This document shows positions 8,767 through 51,009 of a DNA stretch of 64,000 bases, piece by piece. The position numbers and the translations under genes are program-made. This DNA is from Bacteroidales bacterium. GTDB lineage: Bacteria; Bacteroidota; Bacteroidia; Bacteroidales; UBA12077. How positions within the stretch are numbered: position 1 is the first letter of the stretch; each line of letters opens with the position of its first letter. The notes below the pieces were generated by a model. The model was given only the letters and a program-made list of their open reading frames with translations, was not told the DNA's origin and ran no database searches. The stretch spans positions 28,941-92,940 of the forward strand of contig WTBR01000043.1 of assembly GCA_013138975.1 (NCBI GenBank), read 5' to 3'.

Positions 8767-8807
8767 CTTATTCTACTATGACAGATTTAACTTTTATACA
8801 AAATCAA

Positions 8808-29414: not shown

Positions 29415-32400
29415 ATGACGAATTTATCTAAGGAAAATACCACTTTAAATAAAAAAAGAGAAGAAAATAATTATTGGAAGACTCTTTTGTCTGGTATTAC
29501 ATTACCAACATATATACCTGTAGATTCTACTGTAATTAGGGGTGAGGGTGACTATAAGGAATTTAGCATTAATTTAGATGATGAAAGTTCTTCCTTTATT
29601 CTTAAAATCAGTAACAATTCAAACGTTCGTTTGCATATAATTCTTGTTTCGCTTGTAAAAGTATTGTTATATAAATACAGAACCCAATCCGAATTATTAA
29701 GTATAACAACAATCGATAAGCAGGTATCAGACAAAAAAATATTAAATCACATCTTACCATTTAAAACTTTTGTAGCCAAAGACCAATCTTTTAAAGAAGT
29801 TATTTTAGCTGTTAAAGAATCGTTGAAACAAGCATCCGATAACCAGAATTATCCAATTGAAAAGTTGGCAAAATCTATCGAACGACAACTTCAGTTCGAG
29901 AAACCCTACGGCTTATTTAACATAGCTATTCTTTTAGATGGCATGCATGATGAAAAATATTTAGAAGGAATTGATTGTCATTTGCTTTTTAAATTCCGAA
30001 AAATAAACGATAAGATCAATTTAGTTATTAAATATAAGGATGAATTATATACAAAGAATAAGATAGAACGAGTAGCCGGTCATCTGAAAAACATAGCCAA
30101 TTCCATAAGTAACAATATAGAATTACAAGTTAATTCAATCAACTATCTTTCAGAAAATGAAAGCAAAAACTTATTAGAAGGTTTAAATGAAAACATAGAA
30201 CAACCAATTCCGGAATCGATTTACCAAGTTATAAAAGAAAACGCAAAGAAATATGCCCATAAAGTAGCTCTTGTATATAAAGATGAACACATTACATATC
30301 AGGTATTAGACAAAAAGGCTAACAGCATAGCAAAAATATTGAAAATAAAAGGCGTAGTCCAAAATTCAATAGTAGGAGTGCTTGGGAATCGCTCTATGAA
30401 TACCATGTTAAATATCCTCGGAACACTAAAAGCTGGAGGAACCTATTTGCCTATTGATCCTGAATATCCTTTAGATCGAATAAAATTTATGATCGAGGAT
30501 GCAAACATTAAGTATTTATTAGTGGATCCTGAGGTGTATAGTAAGATTGAGATATCTGGTTTATTTGAAGAATTGGAAGATTCCACGGAATTAATACATA
30601 CTCAATGCAGGAGTCAAATTGAGGATTTTAATTCATTACCATTTCCCGATAGGTCGAAAGTGGACTATGACAAGTATAATAAACACATTGGTCAGGCCAT
30701 GGTAAAGAATAGTATTGCTATTCAAGCTACCCGTGGTTGTCCATATGCATGTGCATATTGTCATAAAATTTGGCCAAAGAAACATGTTTGGAGAAGTTCA
30801 GATAATATTTTCGAAGAAATACAGATGTATTACAATCAAGGAATAAAACGATTTGTTTTCATCGACGATATTTTCAATCTGAAAAAGAACAATAGCAAAG
30901 ATTTATTTAAAAAAATTATTGATAAGGGATTAAAAATTCAACTATTCTTTCCTAATGGCTTGCGAGGCGATATTTTAAATGAAGAGCTGATTGACCTTAT
31001 GGTTGAAGCAGGGATGGTTAATGTAGCCCTTGCATTGGAAACAGCATCTCCACGATTACAAAAGCTCATAGGAAAAAACTTGAACCTCGACAAACTAAGA
31101 ACCAACATCAACTATATCTGTGAAAAACACCCACATGTAGTTCTTGAATTGTTTACCATGCATGGCTTCCCAACCGAAACAGAAGAAGAAGCGAATAGCA
31201 CACTCGAATTTATTAAAAGTATTAAATGGCTTCATTTTCCATATGTTCATATCCTGAAAATATATCCTAATACCGATATGTCCAAATTGGCTATTGAAAA
31301 TGGAATATCTTCACTCGATATTGACAATTCGGCAAATTTATCCTATCACGAACTCCCGACCACTTTACCTTTTGAAAAGTCTTTTACTTTAAAATATCAA
31401 TCGGATTTTTTCAATAATTATTTCTTATCAAAAGAACGTTTGATAAAGGTTTTACCGCATCAAATGAAAGTTTTAACCGAGGACGAAATAGTTCAGAAAT
31501 ACAATAGTTATTTACCCGTTAACATAACTAATATTGAAGAATTGCTGGAATTCTTAAAAATTAGTAAAGAAGAACTGGGGGCATTCGAATTTGTTCAGGA
31601 AGATGAGTTTCATGTAAAAGATTTAAATAAAAAACTACAAGCTTGTTTTAAAAAAGATTACGAAGTAGAAAAAAATGCCTTCAAAATCCTTTTACTTGAC
31701 CTGTCACAGAATTTAACTTCCGATGAAGAGATGCTTTACGATGTAGTTGAGCCCCCTTTAGGCTTGATGTACCTCGCCGCATATGTAGAAGGCAAATTCA
31801 GGCAGGATGTTGATGTGCGAGTTTTAAAATCAAAAATTGATTTCGACAACTTTAGCGCTTTAAAGAATATATTAGATGATTTCAAGCCCGACGTAATCGG
31901 AGTCAGGACATTATCCTATTATAAAGAATTTTTTCATGAGACCATATCTAATATTCGTTTATGGAATCCATCGATCCCGATATTAGCTGGTGGGCCTTAT
32001 CCATCGAGCGACTATATGTCAACCCTGAAAGATGGCAACATAGATTTAGTAATTCAAGGAGAAGGAGAATTTACGTTTGGCGAAATTGTCGAATGCATGA
32101 TGAAGAATGATAATAAGTTGCCCGATGAGGAGCAGCTTAAAACCATAGATGGAATCCATTTCATGAAAAAGTCGGTGCTTAAACGTCAGATTATATCCAC
32201 CGATTTTAAGAACATAAACTCTGAACCGGAAGAATTAGCACATATCAATAAACCAGACGATGGCGCATACATTATATATACTTCAGGCACAACCGGTAGG
32301 CCAAAAGGAGTTATGGTATCCCATGAAAATGTTTTAAGCCTGTTAATAAATAACAATCATTTATTTGATTTCAATAAAGAAGATATTTGGTCAGTATTTC

Positions 32401-38400: not shown

Positions 38401-41249
38401 ATAGAATATCCTATATGTTTGAAGATAGTAAGTTGCAAATCTTATTGGTCAATACCGATATTTCAAATCTGAATCTTGAAACAGAGCAATACTTAATTTA
38501 TGATCTTAGGGATGAAAGCAGTTATGCTTCAAATACATCTAATCCAGATGTAATTGGAACACCTGAAGACTTGGTTTATATAATTTATACCTCTGGTTCT
38601 ACAGGTAAACCTAAAGGTGTAATGCTGAAAGACAAGAATATGGTTAATCTCATACAATTTGATTATGACAAGACCAATTTAGATTTTAGCTCTATCTTAC
38701 AATTTTCGACCATTAGTTTTGATGCCTCGGCTCATGAAATATTCGGAGCTTTATTAAGTGGAGGAAAACTTGTTTTAGTTGACGAATCTACACGTTTAAA
38801 TGTAATGGGGATTTTCGAATTAATGACAAAAGAACAAGTTAAAACTGTTTTCTGGCCCATGTCATTAATAAAATTGATATTTGGGGATCAAACTTTTGTT
38901 GATCAAATACCAAAATGCTTACGTCATCTTCAAACTGCAGGGGAAAAGGTTATTATAAATGAGTCGTTAAGAAATTACCTTAAAACGAACAATGTATTTA
39001 TACATAACCATTACGGGCCATCAGAAACCCATGTTGTAACAACTTTAACAATAGCACCGAATGAAGATCATCCGGAATTTCCTACAATAGGTAAACCTAT
39101 TTCAAACACAACAGCTTATATCTTGGATAAGAGTCTCAATCTTGTACCTGTAGGAGTTAAAGGAGAACTTTATTTTGGAGGAACTCAGGTTGGAAGAGGA
39201 TATTTTGGAAAAGAGGAACTTACCAGAGAGAAGTTTATTGAAAGTCCATTTATTAAAGGAGAAAAAATTTATCAAACAGGAGATATAGCACGTTGGTTAC
39301 CTGATGGTAACATCGATTTTTTGGGAAGGGTCGATCACCAAGTAAAGATTCGTGGATTTAGGGTAGAATTAGGCGAGATAGAGAGTGCTTTATTAAAATA
39401 TGAAAACATAAAAGAGATTGTAGTTCTTGCTAGGGAAGAAAAAGGAGACAAGTACTTGTGTGCATATATAGTTAGTACTGAAGAAATTGATCATGAAGAG
39501 CTAAGAGCGTATATGTCGGAACGGCTTCCCGATTATATGGTTCCTTCTTATTTTGTTGTGCTTGAGAGTTTCCCACAAACTGCAAACGGAAAGATAAATA
39601 GTAAAGCTTTGCCGAAACCGGAAATAAAAGAAGGAGACGATCATGTAGCACCATCCGCAGAAATAGAGGAAAAGGTAGTTGAAATATGGTCGGAAGTCTT
39701 AGATATCGATAAAGAAAATATAAGTGTAAATTCTGATTTTTTCTCATTAGGAGGCCATTCCTTAAAAGCGATAGCATTATTATCCAAAATTGAGAAAGAA
39801 TTCTCGGTAAGAATTGCAATGAAAGATTTCTTTGCTAATCCAAGTGTGAAGAAGCTGGGTAAATCGATTTTAAAATCGAAAAAAACTACAAATAATACAA
39901 AACTGGTACCCGTTGAATCGAAGGAATATTATGTAGCATCTATGCCTCAAAAGAGATTGTATTTTATACAAAACCTTAATCCTGCGGATAAAAGCTATAA
40001 TGTTTCTGCTGCCTTTACCATTAAAGGTGAACTTGATAAACAGAAATTTGAAAATGCATTACAACAACTAATAAATCGACATGCAGGTTTAAGGACTTCA
40101 TTCATAATGCTTAATGATGAAATAGTACAAAAAATAAACAATAAGCTTGAACCTCGGCTTACGTACATAAATGAAGATGATAAGGACATTCCCCAAATCA
40201 TTAAAGACTTTATTACACCCTTTGAATTATCTGAAAAATCATTATTTAGAGTTGGCTTGGTTAAAACAAAGAAAAATGATTCGATATTAATTCTGGATAT
40301 GCACCATATTATTTCTGATGAAGTATCCAACAGGATTATATTCGGTGACTTTGTTGATTTTTATAATGGTAAAAAATTAAGCTTGCTGAAAATTCAATAT
40401 GTGGATTTATGCGAGGAGCAGGAGGAAATGAAAAAGCGGGATGTTCTGAATACACAAAAGGTTTTCTGGGAGAATTATTATGATAATTACAATAATGACA
40501 GTTCACTTCCGTATGATCTTAACAAAGACGATCAATTAAAGAATAAAGGAAATATAATATCATTTACTCTTGACGGTTCAATGAATCAGGATTTGATAAA
40601 AATAAGAGAAGAATATAATTCATCCATTTATATTATAATCCTTTCCGTATTTAACATCCTTCTTTCGAAAATTTTAAATCATGATGATATCGTTGTAGGA
40701 TCGCCTATTACTGGGAGAGAAAACCCGGCCTTGAAAAACATCGTGGGATATTTAGTGAATACTTTGGCAATGCGCAGTATTGTTAATGGGGAAGCTAAAT
40801 TTGTTGATTTCTTAAAAATAGTAAACGATAGAACATTAGATGCAATTGATAATAGCAATTACGATACAATAGAATTAATTAATAAAATCAATAAAAGTGG
40901 AAGGAACAAAGGCAAGTCATTATTCGATATAATGTATACATACAATATTGTTGAAAGCAATAAGGCGAGTTTGTCAAACATAAATGTTGAACCATATACA
41001 TTTGATGGATTTTCGTCGCAATGCGATATAAAACTGAGAGTTATGGATAATAAAAATTCCTTATCACTTGCTTTTGAATACAACGAAAACTTATTCCTCG
41101 AAGATAAAATTCATAGATACATTAAGTATTTTAAGAAAATATTAAATGACATTATATTAAATCCTGAAATTACAATTGACGAAATAAATTTAACTTCTGA
41201 AAAAGATGAAGTTAAGCTAATGAATTCTTTAGTAGAAGATTTAGAGTAA
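29415..41249 (+). CDS. trimodular NRPS, half-C - A(interrupted by rSAM/B12 unit) - T - C - A - T - C - A - T - C
   Basis: The N-terminal region is C-lobe-only (NNYWKTLL...). Module 1: A1 has ITYQVL and LKAGGTYLPID, is then interrupted, and resumes with YIIYTSGTTGRPKG, FDFSVWEIF, NMFGITETTVH, YKTGDKV, GRIDEQIQLRGFRIELKEIE, INGKIDKK. T1 is FFNLGGDSI. The first C domain has LYPMSDIQRGMVYH and HHAIIDGWS. Module 2: A2 has YTSGSTGKPKG, NNYGPTENTVV. T2 is LIGGHS. The second C domain has YPVSPAQKRLYFLQ and HHIISDGTS. Module 3: A3 has YTSGSTGKPKG, NHYGPSETHVV. T3 is SLGGHS. The final C domain has YYVASMPQKRLYFIQ and HHIISDEVS. Confidence 0.9.
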   Translation: MTNLSKENTTLNKKREENNYWKTLLSGITLPTYIPVDSTVIRGEGDYKEFSINLDDESSSFILKISNNSNVRLHIILVSLVKVLLYKYRTQSELLSITTIDKQVSDKKILNHILPFKTFVAKDQSFKEVILAVKESLKQASDNQNYPIEKLAKSIERQLQFEKPYGLFNIAILLDGMHDEKYLEGIDCHLLFKFRKINDKINLVIKYKDELYTKNKIERVAGHLKNIANSISNNIELQVNSINYLSENESKNLLEGLNENIEQPIPESIYQVIKENAKKYAHKVALVYKDEHITYQVLDKKANSIAKILKIKGVVQNSIVGVLGNRSMNTMLNILGTLKAGGTYLPIDPEYPLDRIKFMIEDANIKYLLVDPEVYSKIEISGLFEELEDSTELIHTQCRSQIEDFNSLPFPDRSKVDYDKYNKHIGQAMVKNSIAIQATRGCPYACAYCHKIWPKKHVWRSSDNIFEEIQMYYNQGIKRFVFIDDIFNLKKNNSKDLFKKIIDKGLKIQLFFPNGLRGDILNEELIDLMVEAGMVNVALALETASPRLQKLIGKNLNLDKLRTNINYICEKHPHVVLELFTMHGFPTETEEEANSTLEFIKSIKWLHFPYVHILKIYPNTDMSKLAIENGISSLDIDNSANLSYHELPTTLPFEKSFTLKYQSDFFNNYFLSKERLIKVLPHQMKVLTEDEIVQKYNSYLPVNITNIEELLEFLKISKEELGAFEFVQEDEFHVKDLNKKLQACFKKDYEVEKNAFKILLLDLSQNLTSDEEMLYDVVEPPLGLMYLAAYVEGKFRQDVDVRVLKSKIDFDNFSALKNILDDFKPDVIGVRTLSYYKEFFHETISNIRLWNPSIPILAGGPYPSSDYMSTLKDGNIDLVIQGEGEFTFGEIVECMMKNDNKLPDEEQLKTIDGIHFMKKSVLKRQIISTDFKNINSEPEELAHINKPDDGAYIIYTSGTTGRPKGVMVSHENVLSLLINNNHLFDFNKEDIWSVFHSLCFDFSVWEIFGSLFFGGKAILIPTDITKDPDCFRDVLQKEKVTILNQTPSSFYNVINKELQSENKSLKLRSIIFGGEALNPSKLSKWRNSYPNVKLVNMFGITETTVHVTYKEITQKEIEEGISNIGKSLPTSLTLVLNENMELLPIGMPGELYVGGSGVSLGYLNRTELNFDKFINKNNDYKTQVYKTGDKVVLNEKYELEYIGRIDEQIQLRGFRIELKEIESEMNNHDKIDNAYVELFEKDEEKYLSAYYVSNEELENAEIRKFLQKRLPYYMLPSYYIRIDNIPLTINGKIDKKLLPKPSVLNCLFEVVAPENELQVHLVEIWKKVLQVNNIGIEDSFFNLGGDSIKGIRLVNAINENLDTRLRVADLFKNDTIRTLSLIVKNKEADQENNKETQLLKDFEQIKESAFQKNIYNQHEIEDLYPMSDIQRGMVYHAIKSADKAVYHDQMIHQIKIPDFKQNTLKDALKLMSQKHSILRASFNMENFEESSIVIFKEIEIDYQHEDISEMPKDSKVEFLGKYLEDDKKKILRTDQKGLWRLRTFQVDENEIFVLFVCHHAIIDGWSDASFITELHNLYFKLLEDINYVPVKLKSTYKDYVIDQTIERSNNENINFWKTELSGVKKYDDRYFLNKPQITKNEFKFSINELDSDLVSKINKKGKDLNISLKSIYLTAFSFALNMFSFEPDFVFGLVSNSRIAKPDGDKILGCFLNTLPLKIKFSLEQENQDLMTYFNTKLNDLKKYDSISLFEILKFADHEGAENALFDIIFNYVDFHILNQIDYTQEQKSGIPYLVSKLTGNARADTPLNFTLDTTKESVKFYSSFDSSKYSEEKVKQIHIYLVRALEILSGDDSASLSKSQLIDKNEKQEILNTLNNTDTSYPKDKTIHQLFEEQAERSPDNIALVLGSESITYSELNKKSNQLAQYLIHNGALESDFIGIINEPAIEVYISILAILKTGKAYLPIDNSLPDSRIQFMLNDCGVKILLASNLKTQYLDNDKNPIVPINIFETLIGGSSNLNLKTSSTSPAYVIYTSGSTGKPKGVLIEHKSLVNLSFNHNKFYGIKSDDRLSKFAGFGFDASVWEIFPSFIAGSSLYIIDENIKPDPGKVNKYFEKNNITVSFLPTQFCEKFMEYDNKSLKILLTGGDKLNYFKKRDYKLYNNYGPTENTVVTSRFEVQNLENNIPIGKPIENIQVYILDRYSQVQAFGVPGELCISGIGLAKGYIGNDELSAEKFTKHPFNKGERIYRTGDLACCLPDGNIEFLGRIDQQVKIRGFRIELGEIESVLLKHEYVQESVVLTREETGDKHLCAYIVCKEGYIQENLRQYLSTLLPDYMVPAYFVDLEALPISPSGKVNRKALQALEIEAGADYIAPSNAIEEKLLDIWSEILNTPVEKISVMANFFLIGGHSLKATVLASYIHKEIGVEFPLEDIFLHTSIRAQACQIRISKKTEFVSIPKTEEQSNYPVSPAQKRLYFLQQFDLESIAYNMPNVFSLGKEADKRKIEEVFKQLIDRHESFRTSIIVVDGEPVQFISKEVEFELEELSITNNEVENTRNKFIKPFDLSNAPYLRVALVNIKGEDSLLMIDMHHIISDGTSHIILEKEFQTLYSEKELTPLKLQYKDYSQWQNSNEQQEFIKDQEQYWLTKFEGEIPVLSLPMDYVRPLMQSQEGATVNFILSKEETEGIRLFSKENDLTLYMSLLSVFSILLSKLSGQDDIVVGTPIASRNHADLENIVGMFVNTLSIRNAVKGEETIRDFVSSLKQTVLGAYENQNYQFEDLVGKISVERDTGRNPIFDVMFNLLNQAEYNGSINEDIDNSHKKGTSKFDLNLTAIEFENNISLSIEYSTRLFKEETLDRFINYFKQIVAQLTRKSELKISAIDILTEDEKHQVLYEFNNTKADYPTDKTIHQLFEDQVEKTPENIALSLNGETVKYSELNAKVNQLAWKLREQGVKNDSVVGLFVERSIEMVVGILGILKSGGAYLPIDTEYPKDRISYMFEDSKLQILLVNTDISNLNLETEQYLIYDLRDESSYASNTSNPDVIGTPEDLVYIIYTSGSTGKPKGVMLKDKNMVNLIQFDYDKTNLDFSSILQFSTISFDASAHEIFGALLSGGKLVLVDESTRLNVMGIFELMTKEQVKTVFWPMSLIKLIFGDQTFVDQIPKCLRHLQTAGEKVIINESLRNYLKTNNVFIHNHYGPSETHVVTTLTIAPNEDHPEFPTIGKPISNTTAYILDKSLNLVPVGVKGELYFGGTQVGRGYFGKEELTREKFIESPFIKGEKIYQTGDIARWLPDGNIDFLGRVDHQVKIRGFRVELGEIESALLKYENIKEIVVLAREEKGDKYLCAYIVSTEEIDHEELRAYMSERLPDYMVPSYFVVLESFPQTANGKINSKALPKPEIKEGDDHVAPSAEIEEKVVEIWSEVLDIDKENISVNSDFFSLGGHSLKAIALLSKIEKEFSVRIAMKDFFANPSVKKLGKSILKSKKTTNNTKLVPVESKEYYVASMPQKRLYFIQNLNPADKSYNVSAAFTIKGELDKQKFENALQQLINRHAGLRTSFIMLNDEIVQKINNKLEPRLTYINEDDKDIPQIIKDFITPFELSEKSLFRVGLVKTKKNDSILILDMHHIISDEVSNRIIFGDFVDFYNGKKLSLLKIQYVDLCEEQEEMKKRDVLNTQKVFWENYYDNYNNDSSLPYDLNKDDQLKNKGNIISFTLDGSMNQDLIKIREEYNSSIYIIILSVFNILLSKILNHDDIVVGSPITGRENPALKNIVGYLVNTLAMRSIVNGEAKFVDFLKIVNDRTLDAIDNSNYDTIELINKINKSGRNKGKSLFDIMYTYNIVESNKASLSNINVEPYTFDGFSSQCDIKLRVMDNKNSLSLAFEYNENLFLEDKIHRYIKYFKKILNDIILNPEITIDEINLTSEKDEVKLMNSLVEDLE
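30540..32180 (+). other. radical SAM + B12-binding-like unit embedded in adenylation domain 1 (between core motifs A2 and A3)
   Basis: The insert lies in-frame inside the 29415 CDS. A2 (LKAGGTYLPID) is at ~30427-30460. The radical SAM motif ATRGCPYACAYC has its CxxxCxxC at 30738-30761. The Rossmann/B12-type segment (FKILLLDLSQ...PPLGLMYLAAYVEG...VIGVRTLSY...ILAGGPYPS...DLVIQGEGEFTFGEIVE) is at ~31680-32160. A3 (YIIYTSGTTGRPKG) is at ~32263-32310. Boundaries are approximate. Confidence 0.75.
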
Positions 41250-41452: not shown

Positions 41453-44400
41453 ATGACAATACAAAAACTTATCAATAACAGTTTTAAAAGGCACGAAGAT
41501 AATTATGCCTTGAAAAGCGCGAATAGAACTTTATTATACAAGAATCTTCACGAACAATCCGATATTCTTGCTAAGAATATACTTTCAAAAGGATTAAGAG
41601 GGAAAGCAATTGGCGTGTATTTAAGTGATAAAATTGATTTTATTATTAGCATTTTAGGTATACTAAAAGCGCAAAGTATTTTTGTTGTTATTCCAAACGA
41701 ATTCCCTGTAAACAGAGTTCGTAAATCAATCGAAATAACAGATCTGACTTATATTATTTGCAGTAATACAGAAAATGATGAAGCAGTTTTTGGTTCAGGA
41801 AATCAGAATATTAAATGTGAATGTTTTTCTGATTTGATAAAAAATGAGCAAAGCGAACAAAATATTAATTTAGATGAACTCACATACGATGCTGAAGATA
41901 TAATTTATTATTATTTACAATCAACAAAGGATGGCTTACAGGCAATTGCAGGAAAGAATAAAAGCCTTCTGAATGCATCGAATTGGTTTACTGAGGAATT
42001 TGATTTGAACGATAATACAAAATCAGCCTTTTTTTCTGAGTTACAATTAGAACAGTCACTTTTTGATATTTTTCCGGTTCTTATTTCAGGTGGTACAATA
42101 AATATACCTGATAATAACATTAATATTACGAATTATATTCCTGCCAAAGTAGATCCTTCTAATAAGGAAGAAGCCTTACCAAAAGAAGATTACAATAAAG
42201 AATATCCCTTTATTCTTTCAAATGATAAGCTTGAAAGTCTCGAAAAACAATCAAAAAGCCTTGAGGGATATCTTAAAAATAATTCAAAAGCCAATTTCGC
42301 TGATATTTCTTATTCTTTGTCATTATTAAATACAAACAATGCTTATAGAAGATCTTCAATTTGTAGTGATGTTAATGATCTAATAAAGAAAATTGAAGAT
42401 TATTCAAAGGAATCCGCAACAGCTCTTAAATTAAAACAAAACGAAGATATTGTTTTTCTTTTTGCCGGTTTGGGTTCTCAATATCAAAATATGGGTTTGG
42501 GATTATATAATTCCTATGATGTATTTAAAAATTCTGTTGATAAATGCTGCGATATTGTAACTTCAATTTCTGATATTGATATTAAAAACATATTATATCC
42601 TATAGATAAACAGTTAGATAAAACAATAATTGACTCCATAGATATTTCACAGTTAGTTATTTTTATTTTTGAATATGCATTAGCACAACTTCTATTAAGT
42701 ATAGGTATTAAGCCAAAAGTATTAATCGGTTATAGTTTTGGTGAATATATTGCAGCTACTATTTCAGAAGTATTTTACCTTAAGGATATTCTTAAATTAA
42801 TTGTTTTAAGAGGGAAATTAATCAAACAATTACCAGAAGGAAGCATGCTAAGTGTTCCTTTGAATATAAGAAAAGTTGAACCCTATTTGAATGATGATGT
42901 TTCATTGGCAATAAATAATGGAGTTTCTTGCATTATTTCAGGAAAAGTTGAGGCTATAAACTTATTAAAACAAAATTTGCGCAAGGAAAGAATACTTTCT
43001 TATAAATTATCAGGTGAGCGTGCAATTCATTCTTATATGATGGACGAAATTCTTGATGAATTTGAAAAAGAGTTGAGCAAATTCACATTAAATGAACCTA
43101 AAATTCCAATATTGTCCAATCTTACAGGATCATATGTAAAAGAAGGAGAGATGACAGATCCACAATATTGGTCGCGTCATTTGCGTAATACCGTTATATT
43201 TGAACAAGGGATAAAAGAATTGCTAAAATTCGAGAAGGGCGTTTTTATTGAAATAGGGCCGGGGCGAGATTTATGTAATTTACTAAGCAACTTTACAACA
43301 CCCGATCATAAATCCTTTAGCTTAATAAGAAACGAAAATAGAGAAGTTTCTGACGAATCTTTTTTATTGAAAAATGTAGAAAAAATTTGGCAGTCAGGTG
43401 TTTCTGTACAATGGAAACAGATTTTTGCCCCTGAGAGTAGAAATAAGATTGAGATATTTAATAAATCTGAAGAAATTATCGATTGGTTAGAAGCTGGAAA
43501 AATTAATTTTCTACTTGGATCAAATCCTTTATTGAAAGAATTGATAAATATGGATAAGCCTGAATCTCGCTTAGATAATTTATCAAAAATACTTGTTTGC
43601 GAAGAGCGAATAAACAAAACATTACTTAAAGAATGGTTTGAGAAATTTGATAATAGCCTTGAGCTTTATACTTTGTATGGATATTCTGAAACAGGGATTA
43701 TTAACTCCTATCATAAATTTGCAAACGAAGATTTGAATAAGCCCGGTATCCCTATCGGTAAAAACATAAAAGGAGTCAGGTTAATAATATTAGATAACAG
43801 TAATCAGTTATGCAACGAAGATCAGGTAGGGCGGGTTTTTATAAGAACACCTTATAGATCTGCCGGTTATCTTTCAAAAGGAGAAATTAAAGAAACATGT
43901 TTCATTCAAAATCCATACAATCAAAACCCTAAAGATCTTATTTTTCCTACCAACAATCTTGGTAAACTGCAAGCAGACGGAAATGTATTTATTCTGGATA
44001 AAATAGACAAAAGAAACATTTCAATTTTAAACAGGCCTGTACATTTACAAGAAATAGATTGCATTATCGAGAACTTTCTGGACATGGAAAAATCACACAG
44101 CATTTTTATAAGTGATGATAATGAGGATGGTAAATTGTATAATTTCTTTAATGCAAAGAATGAAATTCAGGTGAATGAGCTTGAGTCTTATGTAAGAGAA
44201 AGCCTGCCGGCTTATATGTGTGCAGAATCCTATATTCAAACAAACATTGATTTGAGTAATGAAGAGGATTTTGATGACAATATGCTAATTGAACTTTTAA
44301 AAGTCAGTAGCGAAGAAGAAGAGAGTTTTTCCGAAACCGAGAAAGAATTAGCAAGACTCTGGCAAGAAGTGCTCGATGTTGAAGAATCTAAAATATTCAG

Positions 44401-45937
44401 GTACAGTAATTTTTTCGAATTAGGAGGACATTCATTAAAGGCCATTTCTTTAATCTCTAAAATCCATGAAAAATTTGGAGTTAACTTGTCATTAAATGAT
44501 TTATTTAATAATACATCCTTTTCTTCTCAAATGCATTTGATTGACGTAAGTAAAAAAGAAACATATTTAAATATTCCGAATGCGGAAAAGAAAGAATTTT
44601 ACCCGGTTTCAGCAGCACAGAAAAGATTATATTTTATTCAACAAGTAGATTTACAAAGTACAGTTTATCATACAATTACATTATTAGAAGTAAAGGGAGA
44701 AATAAACAAAGATAAATTTGAGTCAACCTTTACAAAGTTAATAGATAGGCACAACAGCCTTCGTACATCATTTCATCAAATCGATAATGAAATAGTTCAG
44801 CGAATTGATCCCCAAGTAAATTTTGAAATTGAATATATGGATGCCCAAAATATAGACATAACAAGGTCTATAAAAGGCACTATACAGCCATTCAATTTAC
44901 AGCAAGCCCCTTTATTTCGAGTGAATCTAATTAAAAGGAGCCTGAATGATCATATTCTCATGATTGATATGCATCATATCATTACAGACGCAACATCAAG
45001 AGGTGTTTTTGTAGGAGACTTTATGAAGCTATATAATCAGGAGGAAACAGGAAAGATTGAATTACATTATAATGATTTTTCTGAATGGCAAAACAAGCTA
45101 TTTAGCTCTGGAAGGATTAAAAAACAAGAACAATTTTGGTTAGATCAATTTAAAGAAACGATCCCGGAACTAAAATTAAAAACAGATTTTGAACGTCCTC
45201 CGGAAATGAGTTTTATAGGAAATCAATATAAAACACAATTTGATGATGCGCTTTTCGAAAAAATAAATCAATTAGTTTCGGAAAGAAATAGCACAGTTAA
45301 TATCTTTTTACTTTCAATATATTATATCTTTTTATGGAAATTCACCGGGCAAACCGATATAGTTGTCGGTTCGGTAATCGTAGGCCGACGACATTCATCT
45401 TTAGAAAAAATTATAGGATTTTTTGTGAATATGCTTCCATTATACAGCAAGTTGTCTGGAGAGATGACTTTTAATACATACCTAAACGAAGTAAAGGAAT
45501 TATCATTAAATGCATATAACAATCAGGATTATCAATTCGAAGAATTAATTAAAAAATTAGAAATCCCAAGAAAAAAAGGCCGACATACCTTAGTTGAAAC
45601 AGTTCTTACGTATCGGGAATTAGGTAATGATTCTAATGTTGCAACTGTGTTTAAAAAAGATAATTTAGAATTTTCTTACTATGATCAAGAATTTGATAAA
45701 GCACATTTTGATTTGCTTTTTGATATAGGTAAAAATAGGAATTCATTATTTATGAATATAGAATATTCAAGCGATTTATTTAAAGATTCAACCATCGTAA
45801 AGTTTGCCAAGCATTTTACACATATCATGGAGCAGGTAATATCAAATAAAAACATAAAACTCGACGAAATAACACTATCACATGATCTTATGACCGCTTC
45901 TGTTGTGGAAGAAGTTGAGGAGGATTGGGATATTTGA
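41453..45937 (+). CDS. NRPS-like subunit: degenerate A domain interrupted by an AT domain, then T-C
   Basis: A-like N-part: LLYKNL, LKAQSIFVVIPNEFP. A3 is replaced by YYLQSTKDGLQAIAG, so there is no TSGSTGxPKG. AT domain: FLFAGLGSQY, GYSFGE (Ser codon 42734-42736), RAIHS. A-like C-part: TLYGYSETG, GRVFIRTPYRSAGYL. A7 YxTGD and the A8 GRxDxQVKIRG are degenerate, and there is no A10 Lys motif. T domain: FFELGGHS. C domain: FYPVSAAQKRLYFIQ, HHIITDATS. It ends ...EEDWDI. Confidence 0.85.
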   Translation: MTIQKLINNSFKRHEDNYALKSANRTLLYKNLHEQSDILAKNILSKGLRGKAIGVYLSDKIDFIISILGILKAQSIFVVIPNEFPVNRVRKSIEITDLTYIICSNTENDEAVFGSGNQNIKCECFSDLIKNEQSEQNINLDELTYDAEDIIYYYLQSTKDGLQAIAGKNKSLLNASNWFTEEFDLNDNTKSAFFSELQLEQSLFDIFPVLISGGTINIPDNNINITNYIPAKVDPSNKEEALPKEDYNKEYPFILSNDKLESLEKQSKSLEGYLKNNSKANFADISYSLSLLNTNNAYRRSSICSDVNDLIKKIEDYSKESATALKLKQNEDIVFLFAGLGSQYQNMGLGLYNSYDVFKNSVDKCCDIVTSISDIDIKNILYPIDKQLDKTIIDSIDISQLVIFIFEYALAQLLLSIGIKPKVLIGYSFGEYIAATISEVFYLKDILKLIVLRGKLIKQLPEGSMLSVPLNIRKVEPYLNDDVSLAINNGVSCIISGKVEAINLLKQNLRKERILSYKLSGERAIHSYMMDEILDEFEKELSKFTLNEPKIPILSNLTGSYVKEGEMTDPQYWSRHLRNTVIFEQGIKELLKFEKGVFIEIGPGRDLCNLLSNFTTPDHKSFSLIRNENREVSDESFLLKNVEKIWQSGVSVQWKQIFAPESRNKIEIFNKSEEIIDWLEAGKINFLLGSNPLLKELINMDKPESRLDNLSKILVCEERINKTLLKEWFEKFDNSLELYTLYGYSETGIINSYHKFANEDLNKPGIPIGKNIKGVRLIILDNSNQLCNEDQVGRVFIRTPYRSAGYLSKGEIKETCFIQNPYNQNPKDLIFPTNNLGKLQADGNVFILDKIDKRNISILNRPVHLQEIDCIIENFLDMEKSHSIFISDDNEDGKLYNFFNAKNEIQVNELESYVRESLPAYMCAESYIQTNIDLSNEEDFDDNMLIELLKVSSEEEESFSETEKELARLWQEVLDVEESKIFRYSNFFELGGHSLKAISLISKIHEKFGVNLSLNDLFNNTSFSSQMHLIDVSKKETYLNIPNAEKKEFYPVSAAQKRLYFIQQVDLQSTVYHTITLLEVKGEINKDKFESTFTKLIDRHNSLRTSFHQIDNEIVQRIDPQVNFEIEYMDAQNIDITRSIKGTIQPFNLQQAPLFRVNLIKRSLNDHILMIDMHHIITDATSRGVFVGDFMKLYNQEETGKIELHYNDFSEWQNKLFSSGRIKKQEQFWLDQFKETIPELKLKTDFERPPEMSFIGNQYKTQFDDALFEKINQLVSERNSTVNIFLLSIYYIFLWKFTGQTDIVVGSVIVGRRHSSLEKIIGFFVNMLPLYSKLSGEMTFNTYLNEVKELSLNAYNNQDYQFEELIKKLEIPRKKGRHTLVETVLTYRELGNDSNVATVFKKDNLEFSYYDQEFDKAHFDLLFDIGKNRNSLFMNIEYSSDLFKDSTIVKFAKHFTHIMEQVISNKNIKLDEITLSHDLMTASVVEEVEEDWDI
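42200..43470 (+). other. acyltransferase domain with PKS-type pre- and post-AT linkers, inserted between A4-like and A5-like regions of a dead adenylation domain
   Basis: The segment YPFILSNDKLESLEKQSKSLEGYLKNN...ADISYSL parallels the KS-AT linker of the 24549 protein (WQMIYLSAKNQNSLEQKRIDFIEYLKNN...ADISYTL). The AT motifs are as listed for the CDS. The post-AT linker VSVQWKQIFAPESRNK parallels NINIEWDKFFEAEKRTK. Boundaries are approximate. Confidence 0.75.
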
Positions 45938-46045: not shown

Positions 46046-47020
46046 ATGGATTGGATTTCTATAATATCATTTTTTGTAGCCATAATTAGTACTGGTTTAA
46101 GTATATTTTTCTATCTCAGACCACGTTTAAGAAAAAAAATAGACATTAATTCAAATGCAAGTATTTCAATTATTGAGATAAAAGAGCAAATCGATGATCT
46201 GAAAATAACTTATAAAGGAAAGGAAATTGAAAATTTGCATGTTCTAAGATTTAGAATTGAAAATAAGGGTAGTAAAGATTTTACAAATGAAGATTTTATT
46301 GATCCTTTTCATTGTACAATTATGGGCAATATAGTTAATGTGACAAAAGTAAATTCTCATCCATATAATTGCGATTTAGATATTAACAAAATAGAAAATA
46401 ATAAAATCTACTTCAAAACAAATTTGTTCAAAGCTGGAGAATATGTTGATATAAAAGTCATATTACTTTCAAAACCTTCACTTAATTTCAATACTAATAG
46501 AATAAAAGATTTGAAAGAAATATCAGTTACTAAGAATGAGTCTGCAAATAAATTTAAATATTTTAAGGGTGGATTGGTTGCTTCAATTTTTTTATCTATA
46601 AGTTTCTTAATAGCAAATGATATAATCAACCCTTCTAAACAATTACTTATTAATCTTTCTTATATAGAGAGGCAATTTTCAATAATTGGAGAAAGCGATT
46701 CAGATAAATATAAATCTCATATTTCTACAAATATTGTAACAATTTCAAATATTGGCTCTAAAGCTATTAAAACCGAGGATTTTGATGGTAATTTTGAATT
46801 TAAATCAAATGATTCAATATTGTACTTTGATTTTTCTGAAGAAATATTTGATAATTTAATTGCAACTACTTTAACTGGAGATAGAAGAAATTTTCACTTT
46901 TCTAAATTTGAGTTGTTACCTAAAACATCTATTTCTTTTTTAATAAAAACCTCTAAACCTTCCAAATTAAATATTAATTGCAAGCTTAAAGATGGCAAAG
47001 TAAGATTCAACAATAATTAG
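46046..47020 (+). CDS. hypothetical membrane protein
   Basis: The 324-aa ORF has an N-terminal TM helix (WISIISFFVAIISTGLSIFFYL) and a second hydrophobic helix (GGLVASIFLSISFLIANDII). I recognise no motif, and it appears unrelated to the biosynthetic genes. Confidence 0.5.
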   Translation: MDWISIISFFVAIISTGLSIFFYLRPRLRKKIDINSNASISIIEIKEQIDDLKITYKGKEIENLHVLRFRIENKGSKDFTNEDFIDPFHCTIMGNIVNVTKVNSHPYNCDLDINKIENNKIYFKTNLFKAGEYVDIKVILLSKPSLNFNTNRIKDLKEISVTKNESANKFKYFKGGLVASIFLSISFLIANDIINPSKQLLINLSYIERQFSIIGESDSDKYKSHISTNIVTISNIGSKAIKTEDFDGNFEFKSNDSILYFDFSEEIFDNLIATTLTGDRRNFHFSKFELLPKTSISFLIKTSKPSKLNINCKLKDGKVRFNNN

Positions 47021-47155
47021 AGTTTAAAAAAATGAAAACCCACTAAATTGCAACAATGGCTAAAAAAATTGCTACATTTAATGATTAGAGAAAAGTAGAA
47101 ATAGGGAATTCTATTTTTTTTTAAAACTTGTGCAGTAAATTCATTTAAAAAATAA

Positions 47156-47809
47156 ATGGCAGATTTATATAAACAAATTCACGAATACTTTAATTCACTT
47201 GAAAGATATTCATTTCCTTATGATAAAAAGGAACTCGAAAGAATCACTGATAAAAATGGACTTTATATCTTGTTTGAAAATGGTGAGAAATATGAAAAAT
47301 ACGACAGAATTGTAAGAATTGGTAGTCATGATTCAGATGACAGATTGATTAAAAGATTGCGAGACCACTTTTTATCAAGCAGACAAAGAAAAAGTATTTT
47401 CCGAAAACACATTGGTCGTTGTTTCCTAAATAGTAAAAATGATGATTACTTAAATGCTTGGGATAAGCCTTTCAATAAAACTGCTGATAAGGAAAAACAC
47501 AAAGAAATTGTTGATTTAAAATACGAACAGCAATATGAAGAATTAATCACAACGCATATAAGAACAAAACTGTCATTTGTTGTTATTCCTAAGGTTTATG
47601 AAAAATTAGATAGAGATAGAATAGAAGAGGGGCTAATTGCTTCTCTTGCACAATCTGACTTAAAAATTAGTTCGAGTAACTGGCTTGGGAATGAACACCC
47701 TAAGATTAAAATTCGACAATCTAAAATCTGGAATATTAAATTCTTAAATGGTAACCCTTTAACAGAAATAGAATTTATAAACTTGATAATAAACAAATAC
47801 GGTGGCTAA
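47156..47809 (+). CDS. hypothetical protein, possible GIY-YIG-type nuclease fold
   Basis: The GIY-YIG-like spacing GLYILFENGEKYEKYDRIVRIGS is followed by RLIKRLRDHF and a later conserved-type Glu (RIEEGLIASL). The assignment is by eye only. Confidence 0.45.
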   Translation: MADLYKQIHEYFNSLERYSFPYDKKELERITDKNGLYILFENGEKYEKYDRIVRIGSHDSDDRLIKRLRDHFLSSRQRKSIFRKHIGRCFLNSKNDDYLNAWDKPFNKTADKEKHKEIVDLKYEQQYEELITTHIRTKLSFVVIPKVYEKLDRDRIEEGLIASLAQSDLKISSSNWLGNEHPKIKIRQSKIWNIKFLNGNPLTEIEFINLIINKYGG

Positions 47810-48003
47810 CAAAAAATATAATGCATTTGGCAGATAGTGCTAAAATTGAAGATGATGGCAAAAAATAAACACAGTAGTAAATTGTAAGTTTGGAGCATTG
47901 AAATGCTAAACTCACCATATTCAATCCGACAATAACTAACTCCGGCATTTATGCCGGAGAAACAAGAATTCAGACGAATGGGCTTTTAGCCCAAAAAGTG
48001 TTA

Positions 48004-48052
48004 TAGATTAAGGGCTAAAGCCCAATGTTCTGTACTTTTATACTCCGCCATA
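48004..48052 (+). repeat. repeat family C, copy 1 (copy 2 at 48249-48297)
   Basis: Copy 1 is TAGATTAAGGGCTAAAGCCCAATGTTCTGTACTTTTATACTCCGCCATA. Copy 2 is TAGATTAAGGGCTAAAGTCCAATGTTCTATACTTTTGTATTCCGCCATA. The two are direct repeats 245 bp apart that bracket family-B unit 48135-48218. Confidence 0.8.
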
Positions 48053-48096
48053 CCTGCCCGCCGAATAATGTGCTAAGGCAGGTGGGAATGACGGAG

Positions 48097-48134
48097 TTAG
48101 TCAAACAAACATTAAAGTCGTAAAGTTAATTAAT
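48097..48134 (+). repeat. repeat family D, copy 2
   Basis: See copy 1 at 21705-21744. Confidence 0.7.
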
Positions 48135-48218
48135 AGCGGTTGTACGACTTACTTAAATAGATGAGAACAAATTGTAAATTTTTTACTAATTTTAAAAAAA
48201 AGTCGTACCACCGCTTGT
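48135..48218 (+). repeat. repeat family B, single unit
   Basis: The unit is AGCGGTTGTACGACTTACTTAAATAGATGAGAACAAATTGTAAATTTTTTACTAATTTTAAAAAAAAGTCGTACCACCGCTTGT. It is followed by the partial spacer GCAAGACCTGTTA that is also seen in the arrays. Confidence 0.85.
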
Positions 48219-48248
48219 GGTAAATATGCAAGACCTGTTAGTTTTTTT

Positions 48249-48297
48249 TAGATTAAGGGCTAAAGTCCAATGTTCTATACTTTTGTATTCCGCCATA
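48249..48297 (+). repeat. repeat family C, copy 2
   Basis: See copy 1 at 48004-48052. There are a few substitutions between the two copies. Confidence 0.8.
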
Positions 48298-48335
48298 ATT
48301 TTGTTAGAGCAAATAATGAAAAATGAAACCAAATA

Positions 48336-48941
48336 ATGTTAGAAAATTTTTTACTGATAAAAGATATTATAGAATTAATTCATCAATATCGCAAGAAAGT
48401 ACTAAAATTACTGTTGACTGTATTAGTAATACTCATTCTTTTTTTCGGTTGGGTAAGTAAGATTGTTTCTAAGGAAGAGACCCGAGATATAGAGACTTGG
48501 ACAATTATAGAGCCTGGTGATTCAATCTTTGTAAAGGATAATGTGTTCTACCTTGACTTTTATAAAAAAGGAAGAGAAAAACTTTCTGACTATAATCAGA
48601 AAGAAATTAATTATCGCAGAGAGGATACTATTAATTTTATACAACAAAATTCAGTGCATGAAAAATACTTTTATAAAAAAAGAACCTCATTCGTAGGGAT
48701 TTGTAAAGAAAAAGATTCAACAATTACTGTACAAGGTGAATATAACAATCATAGATGGGTTAAGATAAAACCTTCATATGAAATTTCACACCCACCAAAA
48801 TCAAATAAATATGACTATGATGCTCGAAAATGGTATGATAACAAAGATAGCTATTTTGTCAACGGACATCTCAGTAAAGACTTTTTTGTAGACTTTGAAG
48901 ATATTACAAATATAAATAATGATAGTATTTTTAATAGATAA
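48336..48941 (+). CDS. hypothetical membrane-anchored protein
   Basis: The 201-aa ORF has a single TM helix (LLLTVLVILILFFGWVSKIV). No motif was recognised. It is flanked on both sides by family-B repeat units. Confidence 0.45.
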   Translation: MLENFLLIKDIIELIHQYRKKVLKLLLTVLVILILFFGWVSKIVSKEETRDIETWTIIEPGDSIFVKDNVFYLDFYKKGREKLSDYNQKEINYRREDTINFIQQNSVHEKYFYKKRTSFVGICKEKDSTITVQGEYNNHRWVKIKPSYEISHPPKSNKYDYDARKWYDNKDSYFVNGHLSKDFFVDFEDITNINNDSIFNR

Positions 48942-49003: not shown

Positions 49004-49264
49004 GCAAGACCTAACAGGTAAAAGTGATATGGCTAAATAAGTAATAGTGCTTGTACGACTTACTTAAATAGATGAGAACAAATTGTAAATTTTTTACTGA
49101 TTTAAAAAAAAGAGTCGTACCACCGCTTGTGGAAAATATGAAAGACCTAACAAGTAACAATGATATGGCCAATTAAGTAATAGCGGTTGTACGACGTACA
49201 TAAATAGATGAGAACAAATTGCAAATTTTTACTGATTTTTTAAAAGAGTCGTACCACCGCTTGT
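49004..49264 (+). repeat. repeat family B array: two units with conserved spacers (136-bp period)
   Basis: The hairpin units lie at 49046-49130 and 49182-49264. Each is preceded by the spacer AAGACCTAACA(G/A)GTA..(A/T)GATATGGC...TAAGTAAT. The same 136-bp spacing separates the 29098 and 29234 units. Confidence 0.85.
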
Positions 49265-49332
49265 AGAAAAAGAGAAAATACCTGCAGATATCAGGAAAGA
49301 ATCAAAAATATAAAACATTAAAAATTAAAGAT

Positions 49333-51009
49333 ATGAATATTTTACTCGGATTATTACCTTTTTGGGATCCTCAAATTCCACCATTAGGGATTGCATGCTT
49401 AAAAAGTTATTTAAATAAAAATGATCTTGATGCAGTTTGTTTTGATTTAAACACCAAAATAGAATTTCGAAATATTTACGATAAATATTTTAGTGTCTTA
49501 AATCGAGTAATCCCCGAAGACAAAAAAGGGAACATTTACAATATTGGAAATCAGGTTGTAAGAAATCATCTCACAGCACATTTGCATGTTGAATCTCAGG
49601 AAAAGTATTTTTTGGTTTTAGGAACCTTGGTTTTAAATACTTTTTATACCAAACTTGAGAATGATGATTATATTGAGTTAATAAATATTGTTAAAGAATA
49701 TTATGTATTACTTGAAAAAGCAATACGTGAATTATTCCTTAAGCATAAACCGACAATATTTGGTTTATCAGTGTTTGGTGATACATTAGGACCATCAATT
49801 TTTGCTTTTAAATTGGCAAAAGAAATAAACCCTGAAATAAAAACGATAATGGGTGGAGGTATTTTTGCCGATCAGCTAGCGCCAAATTCTCCTAATCTTG
49901 AGTATTTTATGAATTATTCTCGCAGTTTTATCGATAAGTACGTTATTGGTGAAGGCGAAGAGCTATTTCTTGCATTTGTTAAAGACGAAATTCCGGAAGA
50001 TGAAATTGTATTATCAAAGCAAAGCAGTGGAAACTATCTGAGTATTGATGAATTGAACGTTCCTGTTTATGATGATTTTGAACTTAAACATTATGCTCAT
50101 GTTGGATTTTATGGGGCAAGAAGTTGTCCATTTCAATGCAATTTTTGTTCTGAAACAATTAATTGGGGAAAATATCGAAAAAAGGAGATAGACAAAACAG
50201 TAAGTGAATTTAAATTATTAAATGAGAAGTATAATAATCAATTGTTTTTATTGACCGATTCAACATTAAATCCTGTTGTTACTCCACTTTCAGAAGCATT
50301 AATAAAAGCTGATTTTACAGTGTATTGGGATGGATTTTTAAGAGCCGACAAACACGTTTGCAGTGAAGAGAATACTATACTATGGAGAAAAGGCGGGTTT
50401 TATAGAGCTAAATTGGGCTTAGAAAGTGGATCTCAGCGTATGTTGGATTTAATGAATAAATCAACATCAGTTGAAACCTATAAAAAAGCGCTAGCCAGTC
50501 TCGCCTTCGCAGGAATAAAAACAACAACATTTTGGCTATTTGGATTCCCCGGTGAAACAGAGGAGGACTTTCAAAAAACACTTGACTTTTTAGAAGAGTG
50601 TAAAGATTATATATACGAGGCCGATTGTAATGCTTTTAATTATTTCGTATCAGGTCAGGCAAATTCAGATGATTGGTTGCAAAATAGCACAAGTTCAGCG
50701 CTATTCCCGGAATGGACAAGAGAATATTTTATTACACAAACAAATGTATTGGATAGTTTACCTTCCAGACAAGATGCCTATTCTCGGGTCAATCGTTTTA
50801 TGGAACATTGTAAAAAACTAGGAATACCTAATCCATATTCTTTAACAGATATTGATAAGGCAGATAAACGATGGAAAAGCTTACATCTTAATGCTGTTCC
50901 TGCCTTAATGGATTTTAAAAGTAATACATATATAGATGAATGTAAAGATGTAAAACAATATACGTTTACATCAGAAGTCGATACAGAAGATTTTGAGTTT
51001 GATCTTTAA
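49333..51009 (+). CDS. B12-binding (class B) radical SAM enzyme (paralog of 5854 gene)
   Basis: The N-terminal segment is LLPFWDPQIPPLGIACLKSYL...IFGLSVFG...KTIMGGGIF...YVIGEGEELF. The CxxxCxxC motif CPFQCNFC lies at 50125-50148. It is collinear with the 5854 protein to the C-terminus (NPY..AD.RWK.LH.NAVP). It ends ...TEDFEFDL. Confidence 0.85.
   Translation: MNILLGLLPFWDPQIPPLGIACLKSYLNKNDLDAVCFDLNTKIEFRNIYDKYFSVLNRVIPEDKKGNIYNIGNQVVRNHLTAHLHVESQEKYFLVLGTLVLNTFYTKLENDDYIELINIVKEYYVLLEKAIRELFLKHKPTIFGLSVFGDTLGPSIFAFKLAKEINPEIKTIMGGGIFADQLAPNSPNLEYFMNYSRSFIDKYVIGEGEELFLAFVKDEIPEDEIVLSKQSSGNYLSIDELNVPVYDDFELKHYAHVGFYGARSCPFQCNFCSETINWGKYRKKEIDKTVSEFKLLNEKYNNQLFLLTDSTLNPVVTPLSEALIKADFTVYWDGFLRADKHVCSEENTILWRKGGFYRAKLGLESGSQRMLDLMNKSTSVETYKKALASLAFAGIKTTTFWLFGFPGETEEDFQKTLDFLEECKDYIYEADCNAFNYFVSGQANSDDWLQNSTSSALFPEWTREYFITQTNVLDSLPSRQDAYSRVNRFMEHCKKLGIPNPYSLTDIDKADKRWKSLHLNAVPALMDFKSNTYIDECKDVKQYTFTSEVDTEDFEFDL

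Follow-up and report, generated by a model that had tools for sequence, protein, structure and literature searches.

A PKS-type acyltransferase housed in a degenerate adenylation domain of a Bacteroidales nonribosomal peptide synthetase

The subject of this analysis is a 64,000-nt stretch of contig WTBR01000043.1 from a Bacteroidales bacterium, hereafter the window, which is an ∼30% GC gene cluster for nonribosomal peptide synthetases (NRPSs) and polyketide synthases (PKSs), all on one strand. One of its genes (41453-45937, plus strand; the target) is a single, intact reading frame of 1494 aa, according to the open reading frame (ORF) list and translation, in which a complete acyltransferase (AT) of the PKS type sits within an adenylation (A) domain that has lost its catalytic motifs. 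We refer to the two parts of this degenerate domain as A*N and A*C; a carrier (T) and a condensation (C) domain follow. The combination of a dead scaffold with a competent AT is, in our judgment, highly probable. As an overall explanation we favor, on balance, that the embedded AT loads the carrier of its own module and that the C domain of the preceding protein condenses the chain onto the unit thus loaded.

The domain layout (Table 1) is that of an A fold split by a complete foreign domain and resumed afterwards. Pfam matches the AMP-binding family in two stretches around an Acyl_transf_1 match that scores 153.8 bits against a cut-off of 32.7; the C-terminal stretch (aa 673-807) corresponds to profile positions 246-384, and aa 5-222 are covered by DltA-type models of NCBIfam. 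The full insert, which comprises linker, AT, and post-AT linker, occupies aa 233-672. After residues 233-667 had been deleted, the spliced A* was searched against solved structures and aligned over its full length to the A domains of LgrA (208-662), GrsA (40-508), McyB, and TycA, so that the A fold is continuous around the insert. The insertion point is the loop after the strand following motif A4, that is, a site between A4 and A5. Downstream, the T domain keeps its serine and is flanked by the C domain of the upstream protein (HHIISDE) and its own (HHIITDA), as in an NRPS elongation module.

For a comparison of motifs, the spliced A* was aligned with the window's 11 other A domains, including an interrupted one in the upstream gene orf29415 (see below). 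The canonical motifs are present in each of the 11; the target alone is without A3, A4, A7, A8, and A10. Where A3 canonically reads TSGSTGxPKG, the target has QSTKDG-LQA; A4 is LE for FD, A5 GYSE for GPTE, A6 GRV for GEL, A7 FPTNN for Y(K/R)TGD, and A8 DKIDKRNISILNRPVH (also given as DKIDKRNISILNRP) for GRxDxQVKIRGxRIE, while A10, canonically NGK(V/I)D, has become EEDFD with its Lys changed to Asp. Lost in this way are the A3 P-loop, the A4 Asp, the A7 Asp, the A8 Arg, and the A10 Lys. In the ANL superfamily, these positions provide the phosphate-binding loop, the Asp that binds the alpha-amino group, the ribose-binding Asp, and the catalytic Lys. From its sequence, this domain is predicted to be incapable of adenylation.

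The gene is real and under selection. The identical 1494-aa protein is encoded in an independent read-level assembly (Logan SRR10375099), and a 90% identical homologue of equal architecture (P0001) lies on a JGI metagenome contig (L079), together with a matching upstream C-domain gene. Comparing target and P0001 block by block with the Nei-Gojobori method, we obtained ratios of nonsynonymous to synonymous substitution (dN/dS) of 0.23 for A*N, 0.31 for the linker, 0.11 for the AT, 0.10 for the A*C core, 0.21 for the A* small subdomain, 0.13 for T, and 0.18 for C. The dead halves are constrained as strongly as the working domains. GC content, both overall and at third codon positions (GC3), is uniform along the gene blocks, and a promoter and terminator scan around the gene gave the same counts as shuffled sequence. 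We exclude both a chimeric assembly and a pseudogene in decay. Since A* is under purifying selection and carries family-specific conserved motifs, we regard it as a maintained scaffold rather than decaying sequence.

Those motifs come from a small family of relatives. A search of 5.8 billion protein clusters found the split architecture in 10 others, namely P0001 and nine clusters (P0002-P0010; 1048-1156 aa; 28-48% identity) with the order A*N-AT-A*C-T-TE, in which a thioesterase (TE) stands at the end. The alignment places the AT at an identical site in these nine and in the target. The degenerate A3 region carries the family-specific invariant AGKNKSL, and the A6 region reads IRTPYR(A/S)A(G/A)Y. 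Six of the nine TE-type relatives have lost the whole C-terminal A subdomain with A9 and A10; the remaining three retain YKTGD and PDGKID. The family thus shows the adenylation apparatus at several stages of decay, with its core conserved. The KS-AT-type linker, named for its place between ketosynthase (KS) and AT domains, and the post-AT linker are found only in the target and P0001 and are absent from the TE-type relatives.

In a tree with the intact A domains of the window, all 100 of 100 bootstraps recover the A* scaffolds as one clade, a figure to which long-branch effects may contribute. The TE-type ATs are likewise monophyletic (100/100), and they group with the target AT in only 2 of 100 bootstraps. 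In our reading, either the scaffold arose once and its AT cassette was exchanged later, or the AT tree is just poorly resolved.

Further searches added little to the family. A profile of the family alignment, run against a library of 1.84 billion representatives, gave no new members among its best 150 matches, which are dominated by giant multimodular synthetases with summed scores; within these 150, only P0008 (in two stretches) and P0001 matched most or all of the profile length. A search with an A*N-only profile returned four weak or partial matches, did not recover the known family, and so says nothing on its spread. Scanning metagenome contigs with A*N patterns yielded one added TE-type locus (L082) with matching synteny, the other five matches being ordinary stand-alone A proteins. 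Among 76 loci from species-representative genomes, scanned with the AT motifs of a broad clade as patterns, none had an A*-AT junction. The family has been seen only in metagenomic assemblies and bins, with no cultured organism among them, as about ten clusters among 5.8 billion, and the design is rare.

The embedded AT has the features of a working FabD/PKS-type enzyme. Its motifs are GLGSQY, GYSFGE, LSY, and RAIH. Ser428 (in GYSFGE), His526 (in RAIHS), and the carboxylate-binding Arg453 are all present and are invariant across 11 family members; Arg453 lies 25 residues after Ser428 and is equivalent to FabD R117. The nearest solved AT is ZmaA-AT from zwittermicin biosynthesis (4QBU), with 334 bits against 189 for the next structure and a match that spans both linkers. 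A GYSxG motif, with Tyr for His before the Ser, and hydrophobic residues at the so-called RXR positions have been linked to extenders tethered to an acyl carrier protein (ACP; PMC4207774). With GYSFG and L-S-Y at these positions, the target AT fits the signature of the ACP-dependent ATs of ZmaA/FkbA type. It shares GYSFG, the hydrophobic RXR residues, and the Arg with ZmaA-AT and the FkbA-type methoxymalonyl ATs, and its linkers align to those of ZmaA-AT; the motif at the YASH position, in contrast, is RAIH in the target and GAAH in ZmaA-AT. The same GYSFGE/RAIH subtype occurs in an ordinary KS-AT-KR-ACP module (P0012, locus L081).

Within the window, the closest counterpart is the KS-AT-T-C protein of orf24549, which has in common with the target the order linker-AT-...-T-C and whose AT likewise falls in the ZmaA-like clade. 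Whereas orf24549 brings its own KS for decarboxylative C-C bonding, the target has A*N at the KS position and would rely on the C domain of the preceding protein as condensing catalyst. Unlike the AT of a cis-AT PKS module, the target AT has no KS ahead of it and no ACP or KR behind it; it sits inside an A remnant and faces a peptidyl carrier protein (PCP) domain and then a C domain. A recent duplication of the neighbor's AT was considered as its source and is ruled out by an identity of only 42.6% together with the uniform GC3.

Much of this had been anticipated in an earlier note on the same DNA, made from the letters and an ORF list, and each of the sequence checks that it suggested has borne it out. 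All the strings it quoted are in the protein (LLYKNL, LKAQSIFVVIPNEFP, YYLQSTKDGLQAIAG, GLGSQY, GYSFGE, RAIHS, TLYGYSETG, GRVFIRTPYRSAGYL, LPAYM, GGHS, and HHIITDATS). Pfam confirms the AMP-binding match split around Acyl_transf_1 that it expected, and the collinearity it saw with the linker-AT region of the orf24549 protein holds at the identity just given over the AT, with a CurL-like linker match in both. The loss of ATP- and substrate-binding residues is borne out on alignment to LgrA, GrsA, and the 11 intact A domains of the window. Its view that the A domain has been reduced to a scaffold agrees with the substitution of all adenylation motifs and the purifying selection on the A* parts, and the AT keeps not only the active-site Ser and His on which it had made its proposal depend but also the carboxylate-binding Arg, all invariant in the family. 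The assembly chimera that it named as a possible refutation is excluded by the independent assembly, the P0001 homologue, and the low dN/dS. One detail needs correction: in the A4-like stretch that it described, the true FD position reads LE (QLEQS), and the FDIF found a few residues on is not the A4 Asp.

Where, then, does the module act? Seven window proteins end in a full C domain, and only if the target is counted are there seven acceptor proteins to match them. The upstream gene ends in T-C in eight of eight loci (the window, L079, L001, L002, L082, L088, L089, and L090). Because A*(AT)-T-TE is the last module in the TE-type loci, it can only be an acceptor there, and with an upstream T-C in every locus the carrier charged by the AT most likely accepts the chain from a C domain acting in trans. 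That it is an acceptor in this way first, and only then a donor to its own C domain, we consider fairly likely. Of the earlier note's suggestion that the AT supplies an acyl or malonyl-type unit to a C domain, the malonyl-type unit remains the expected one; the role of the carrier is refined to that of an acceptor for the upstream C, not merely a donor or cap for its own C.

The other synthetases of the line differ from the target at their N termini. The products of orfs 11045, 15009, 18931, 29415, 51190, and 58235 start, over their first ∼240-270 aa, with the C-terminal lobe of a C domain only, running from the YW..L helix on, although a complete C domain already closes the protein before each of them. 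Of the seven synthetases located behind a protein of that sort, these six begin in this manner; the target is the exception and begins directly with A*. These half-C N termini may be remnants of a docking or platform function. Three genes (orfs 46046, 47156, and 48336; 46046-48941) separate the target from the next NRPS. Its 90% identical relative on L079 is followed by a different gene, encoding a Gp49/HigB-like protein, and the spacer after the target therefore looks variable.

We propose the following mechanism. The target would be an elongation module of an NRPS in which only a conserved, catalytically dead scaffold is left of the adenylation domain and a PKS-type AT cassette in the A4-A5 surface loop takes over loading. 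The Ser428-His526 dyad would move a malonyl-type (alpha-carboxy) acyl unit onto the phosphopantetheine at Ser994 of the module's own carrier, the donor probably being a carrier protein-tethered substituted malonate (hydroxymalonyl or aminomalonyl) and less likely malonyl-CoA. The full-length terminal C domain of orf29415 would then join the growing peptide to this unit through an O, N, or C atom, and the module's own C domain would hand its product on to orf51190, the next NRPS. Of these steps, loading of the cis carrier by the AT in place of adenylation is the best supported, and we think it likely.

In its consequence, this would be a KS-free entry of a polyketide-type extender into a peptide, with a PCP charged by an AT from within a dead A domain and the chain joined in trans by an ordinary-looking C domain, a reading whose chances we put a little below even. 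The unit may then be a hydroxy-, amino-, or plain malonyl group and the bond an ester or amide to its alpha-heteroatom, while A* may have been kept as a docking platform for the C and T domains. In the boldest version, the C domain may form a C-C bond with decarboxylation. We know of no precedent for decarboxylative C-C bond formation by C domains.

As to the unit itself, the occurrence of the RAIH subtype in the P0012 module and the invariant Arg point to an extender of the malonyl type rather than to an amino acid. By these features we expect a malonyl-type unit, possibly a hydroxy- or aminomalonyl group borne by a carrier protein. The need of the C domain for a nucleophile favors a heteroatom-substituted malonyl, which is possible, with chances clearly below even. 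In depsipeptide synthetases, C domains are well known to form esters with alpha-hydroxyacyl carriers. ZmaA-AT is specific for hydroxymalonyl-ACP. In Paenibacillus and Kroppenstedtia loci, GYSFGE ATs stand alongside canonical GHSxGE/HAFH malonyl-type ATs in one locus, and in the Paenibacillus locus L060 a GYSFGE AT follows a cassette of FkbK-like, FkbH (275 bits), ACP, and FkbI-like genes.

A candidate donor exists in the window as a free-standing carrier protein, which at 81 aa is smaller than the 100-150-aa cut-offs of the ORF lists. It is 57% identical to the ACP of the L060 FkbK-FkbH-ACP-FkbI cassette and, more generally, 51-57% identical to the ACPs of the Paenibacillus loci L043, L058, and L060 and of L081; its closest solved relatives include the type II PCPs PigG and PltL. 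A homologue was not found in the TE-type loci. It is a possible donor of a carrier-tethered unit to one of the window's two ZmaA-type ATs. Its gene lies just before a 236-aa methyltransferase gene (22020-22730), and methyltransferase, carrier protein, and a gene for a B12-dependent radical S-adenosylmethionine (SAM) enzyme recur in L081.

Several points weigh against the mechanism as proposed. The free carrier protein adjoins the other ZmaA-type AT (orf24549) and may serve that one. FkbH, FkbI, FkbK, and ZmaG/I/J-type genes are absent from the 64-kb window and the relatives' loci, in a cluster that exceeds both window ends, so a supply of hydroxy- or aminomalonyl is unsupported locally. GYSFGE-type ATs are so common in the multimodular PKSs of Aminicenantes-like bins, where they fill most modules, that some are probably users of malonyl-CoA; plain malonyl, for its part, gives a C domain no obvious nucleophile. 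The upstream C domains are ordinary, having a normal HHxxxD and belonging to no special clade with no distinctive motif. Given the separate placement of the target and TE-type ATs, the two subtypes may load different units. Acylation of the cis T domain by the AT is a prediction from sequence. An AlphaFold2 model of the 966-aa A*-AT-A* region, built on an 11-sequence alignment, reached a mean predicted local distance difference test (pLDDT) score of 52 and a predicted template modeling (pTM) score of 0.40, with moderate confidence for the AT and part of A*C only, and is too poor for a check of the geometry.

Among the alternatives, the one that survives best, unlikely as it is, makes the target a starter or cap module, closest to the wording of the earlier note: the AT would load malonyl from malonyl-CoA, and the module's own C would N-malonylate the next residue (or acetylate it after decarboxylation), with the upstream C not a partner. 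Malonyl-CoA is the default substrate for ATs that keep the Arg, the genes for hydroxy- or aminomalonyl were not found nearby in the window, and the target begins directly with A*, without the half-C fragment of the window's other acceptor proteins. However, a starter-type C is already present in orf1049, the terminal C of orf29415 would be left without an acceptor, and in the TE-type relatives the A*(AT)-T-TE module comes immediately after an NRPS that ends in C and is the last acceptor, not a starter.

Somewhat less likely still is that the dead A domain is complemented in trans by a separate A or A-T protein, with the AT serving in proofreading hydrolysis, loading of a free carrier, or off-loading. 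Such rescue of inactive in-line A domains by a separate A-T protein is documented for albicidin, cystobactamid, ramoplanin, and enduracidin (PMC8949500), and those modules resemble the target in that a degenerate A domain is kept as structure and the carrier is loaded by another enzyme through acyl transfer. The flanking C domains also resemble ordinary amide-forming ones, and AT-fold enzymes are reported to serve as hydrolases or terminal transferases. In the rescued modules, however, an amino acid comes from the separate A-T protein, whereas here the dead A domain itself contains a FabD-fold AT, and neither the window nor L001, L002, L082, L088, or L090 has a separate A or A-T gene to spare, although unsequenced parts may hold one. 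Every family member has its AT in cis, built in at a conserved position with the full set of transferase motifs, and the minimal relatives have nothing else to load their carrier.

We think it improbable that the AT is an aminoacyl shuttle, moving an amino acid or short peptide from the free carrier to T after tailoring, for example by B12-radical SAM methylases. This would follow the logic of VinK or of SyrC/CmaE/CysB; the SyrC/CmaE-type shuttle is a free transferase of the alpha/beta-hydrolase type. It would make use of the free carrier protein with its type II PCP relatives, the hydrophobic RXR motif suggests a protein-borne donor, and the flanking C domains would receive a normal amine acceptor. 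We have down-weighted it because the RAIH subtype also serves a KS-AT-KR-ACP module that needs a decarboxylating extender; moreover, Arg453, which binds malonate, is invariant, the 60 solved relatives listed do not include VinK, and the TE-type loci yielded no homologue of the carrier protein. Finally, a nonfunctional relic or artifact (chimera or decaying gene) is very improbable: although one domain has lost many catalytic motifs, all 1494 codons are intact, the independent assembly encodes the identical protein, every block has a dN/dS of 0.10-0.31 against the 90% identical homologue, and the architecture is kept at 28-48% identity in nine further clusters.

How does the target compare with known interrupted A domains? 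In the Labby/Lundy/Garneau-Tsodikova classification, the inserts listed are methyltransferase (M), oxidase (Ox), ketoreductase (KR), and monooxygenase (MOx) domains, the A domain stays active and bifunctional, and M inserts are listed at a2-a3, a6-a7, and a8-a9; neither paper mentions an AT insert (PMC8341866, PMC11355689). The target shares with these the foreign catalytic domain in a loop of an A fold that then resumes. Whereas their inserts tailor a substrate activated by a live A domain, here the A domain is dead, the insert is an Acyl_transf_1 domain with PKS linkers that would act as the loading enzyme, and the site is a4-a5. The monooxygenase insert of MtaG/MelG is also at a4-a5. With A3, A4, A7, A8, and A10 all substituted, the target A domain is predicted not to be bifunctional in that sense. 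Full-text literature searches found nothing on an AT-in-A arrangement in open-access papers, where absence is no proof, in line with the earlier note, which did not recognize the architecture from described systems. We class the target as an NRPS module that is interrupted by a domain and belongs to a hybrid NRPS/PKS line, with an AT insert and a dead A domain that are new relative to the described inserts.

Table 1. Coordinates of the split module, its partners, and other features of the window
Feature	Coordinates	Strand	Basis or detail
Whole gene, A*N-[linker-AT-linker]-A*C-T-C	41453..45937	+	ORF list, Pfam, NCBIfam
A*N, first part of the degenerate adenylation core, aa 1-232	41453..42148	+	Motifs A1, A2, degenerate A3 and A4; alignment to LgrA 208-~415, GrsA
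KS-AT-type linker, aa 253-313, no KS	42209..42391	+	Pfam CurL-like_PKS_C E 9e-9; RhiE-like linker match
AT domain, aa 334-649	42452..43399	+	Acyl_transf_1 E 1e-44
AT Ser428	42734-42736	+	
AT Arg453	42809-42811	+	
AT His526	43028-43030	+	
Post-AT linker, aa 650-672	43400..43468	+	Aligns to C-terminal linker of ZmaA-AT and CurL
A*C, remaining adenylation core and small C-terminal subdomain, aa 673-950	43469..44302	+	Degenerate A5-A10; AMP-binding profile 246-384
Carrier (T/PCP) domain, aa 965-1025	44345..44527	+	PP-binding E 2e-12; GGHSL motif
Phosphopantetheine Ser994 of carrier domain	44432-44434	+	
Condensation domain, aa 1047-1479	44591..45889	+	Condensation E 2e-106; intact HHIITD
C-terminal condensation domain of orf29415, aa 3500-3924, proposed partner	39912..41186	+	Domain map, HHIISDE motif
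Free-standing carrier protein, 81 aa	21766..22011	+	PP-binding 30 bits vs cut-off 20.8
21-nt motif, six copies	29063-29083, 29166-29186, 29331-29351, 48202-48222, 49114-49134, 49248-49268	+	
orf1049			Cstarter-A-T-C
orf11045			c½-A-T-C
orf15009			c½-A-T-C
orf18931			c½-A-T
orf24549	24549-28979		KS-AT-T-C
orf29415, 3944 aa	29415-41249		c½-A(rSAM/B12)-T-C/E-like-A-T-C-A-T-C
Target			A*(AT)-T-C
orf51190			c½-A-T-C-A-T-C
orf58235			c½-A-T-C-A-T
c½, C-terminal lobe of a C domain only; rSAM, radical SAM.

Other interrupted A domains turned up in the same material. The first A domain of orf29415 is interrupted between A2 and A3 by an ∼570-aa block (30537-32249; aa ∼375-945) with a radical SAM domain at aa 437-600 and a B12-binding domain at aa 779-891, its A motifs being intact; an insert of this kind is not mentioned in PMC8341866 or PMC11355689. 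On L001, a gene at 2409-9977, also present in L002, has a ThiF/E1-like domain (aa ∼95-420) between A1 and A2 of an otherwise intact A domain (A3 is LAYILYTSGSTGKPKG), and the paper on interrupted A domains that was searched for such an insert does not mention it. The A*(AT)-T-TE gene of L001 is overlapped at its stop by 4 nt by a HemN/ChuW-like (class C) radical SAM gene (13426-14553), and in L002 and L082 such a gene directly follows A*(AT)-T-TE. This radical SAM enzyme may act on the AT-derived unit.

A 21-nt motif, GTCGTACCACCGCTTGTGGTA, occurs in six plus-strand copies with 0-3 mismatches, none being expected by chance. All copies are intergenic and precede orf29415, orf48336, and orf49333; ahead of the first of these genes, the motif is seen by eye to sit inside repeat units of ∼100-130 nt. 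Rfam gave no matches on the whole window, this motif included. ORFs 23133, 23706, 46046, 47156, and 48336 (173-324 aa) belong to no significant Pfam or NCBIfam family and do not help to explain how precursors are supplied. Besides the synthetases, the window has three stand-alone B12-radical SAM genes and a gene for a U32-peptidase-like protein (7603-8766), at positions 5854-10789 and 49333-51009, and the U32-like gene recurs in a related metagenomic cluster, L080. Recurrence in L080 and L081 suggests a wider, uncharacterized cluster family.

NRPS modules are thought to pick their monomers by adenylation. If our inference holds, an AT takes over monomer selection in an NRPS module, and the A fold survives as architecture only. 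This would widen the rules for product prediction, as current tools would call such a module an A domain of unknown specificity or a broken PKS module. The A4-A5 loop would represent a natural permissive insertion site, and AT cassettes that are not monophyletic on a scaffold that is suggest that cassettes are exchangeable there. The module also poses the question of which nucleophile serves the C domain when the acceptor is a malonyl-type thioester.

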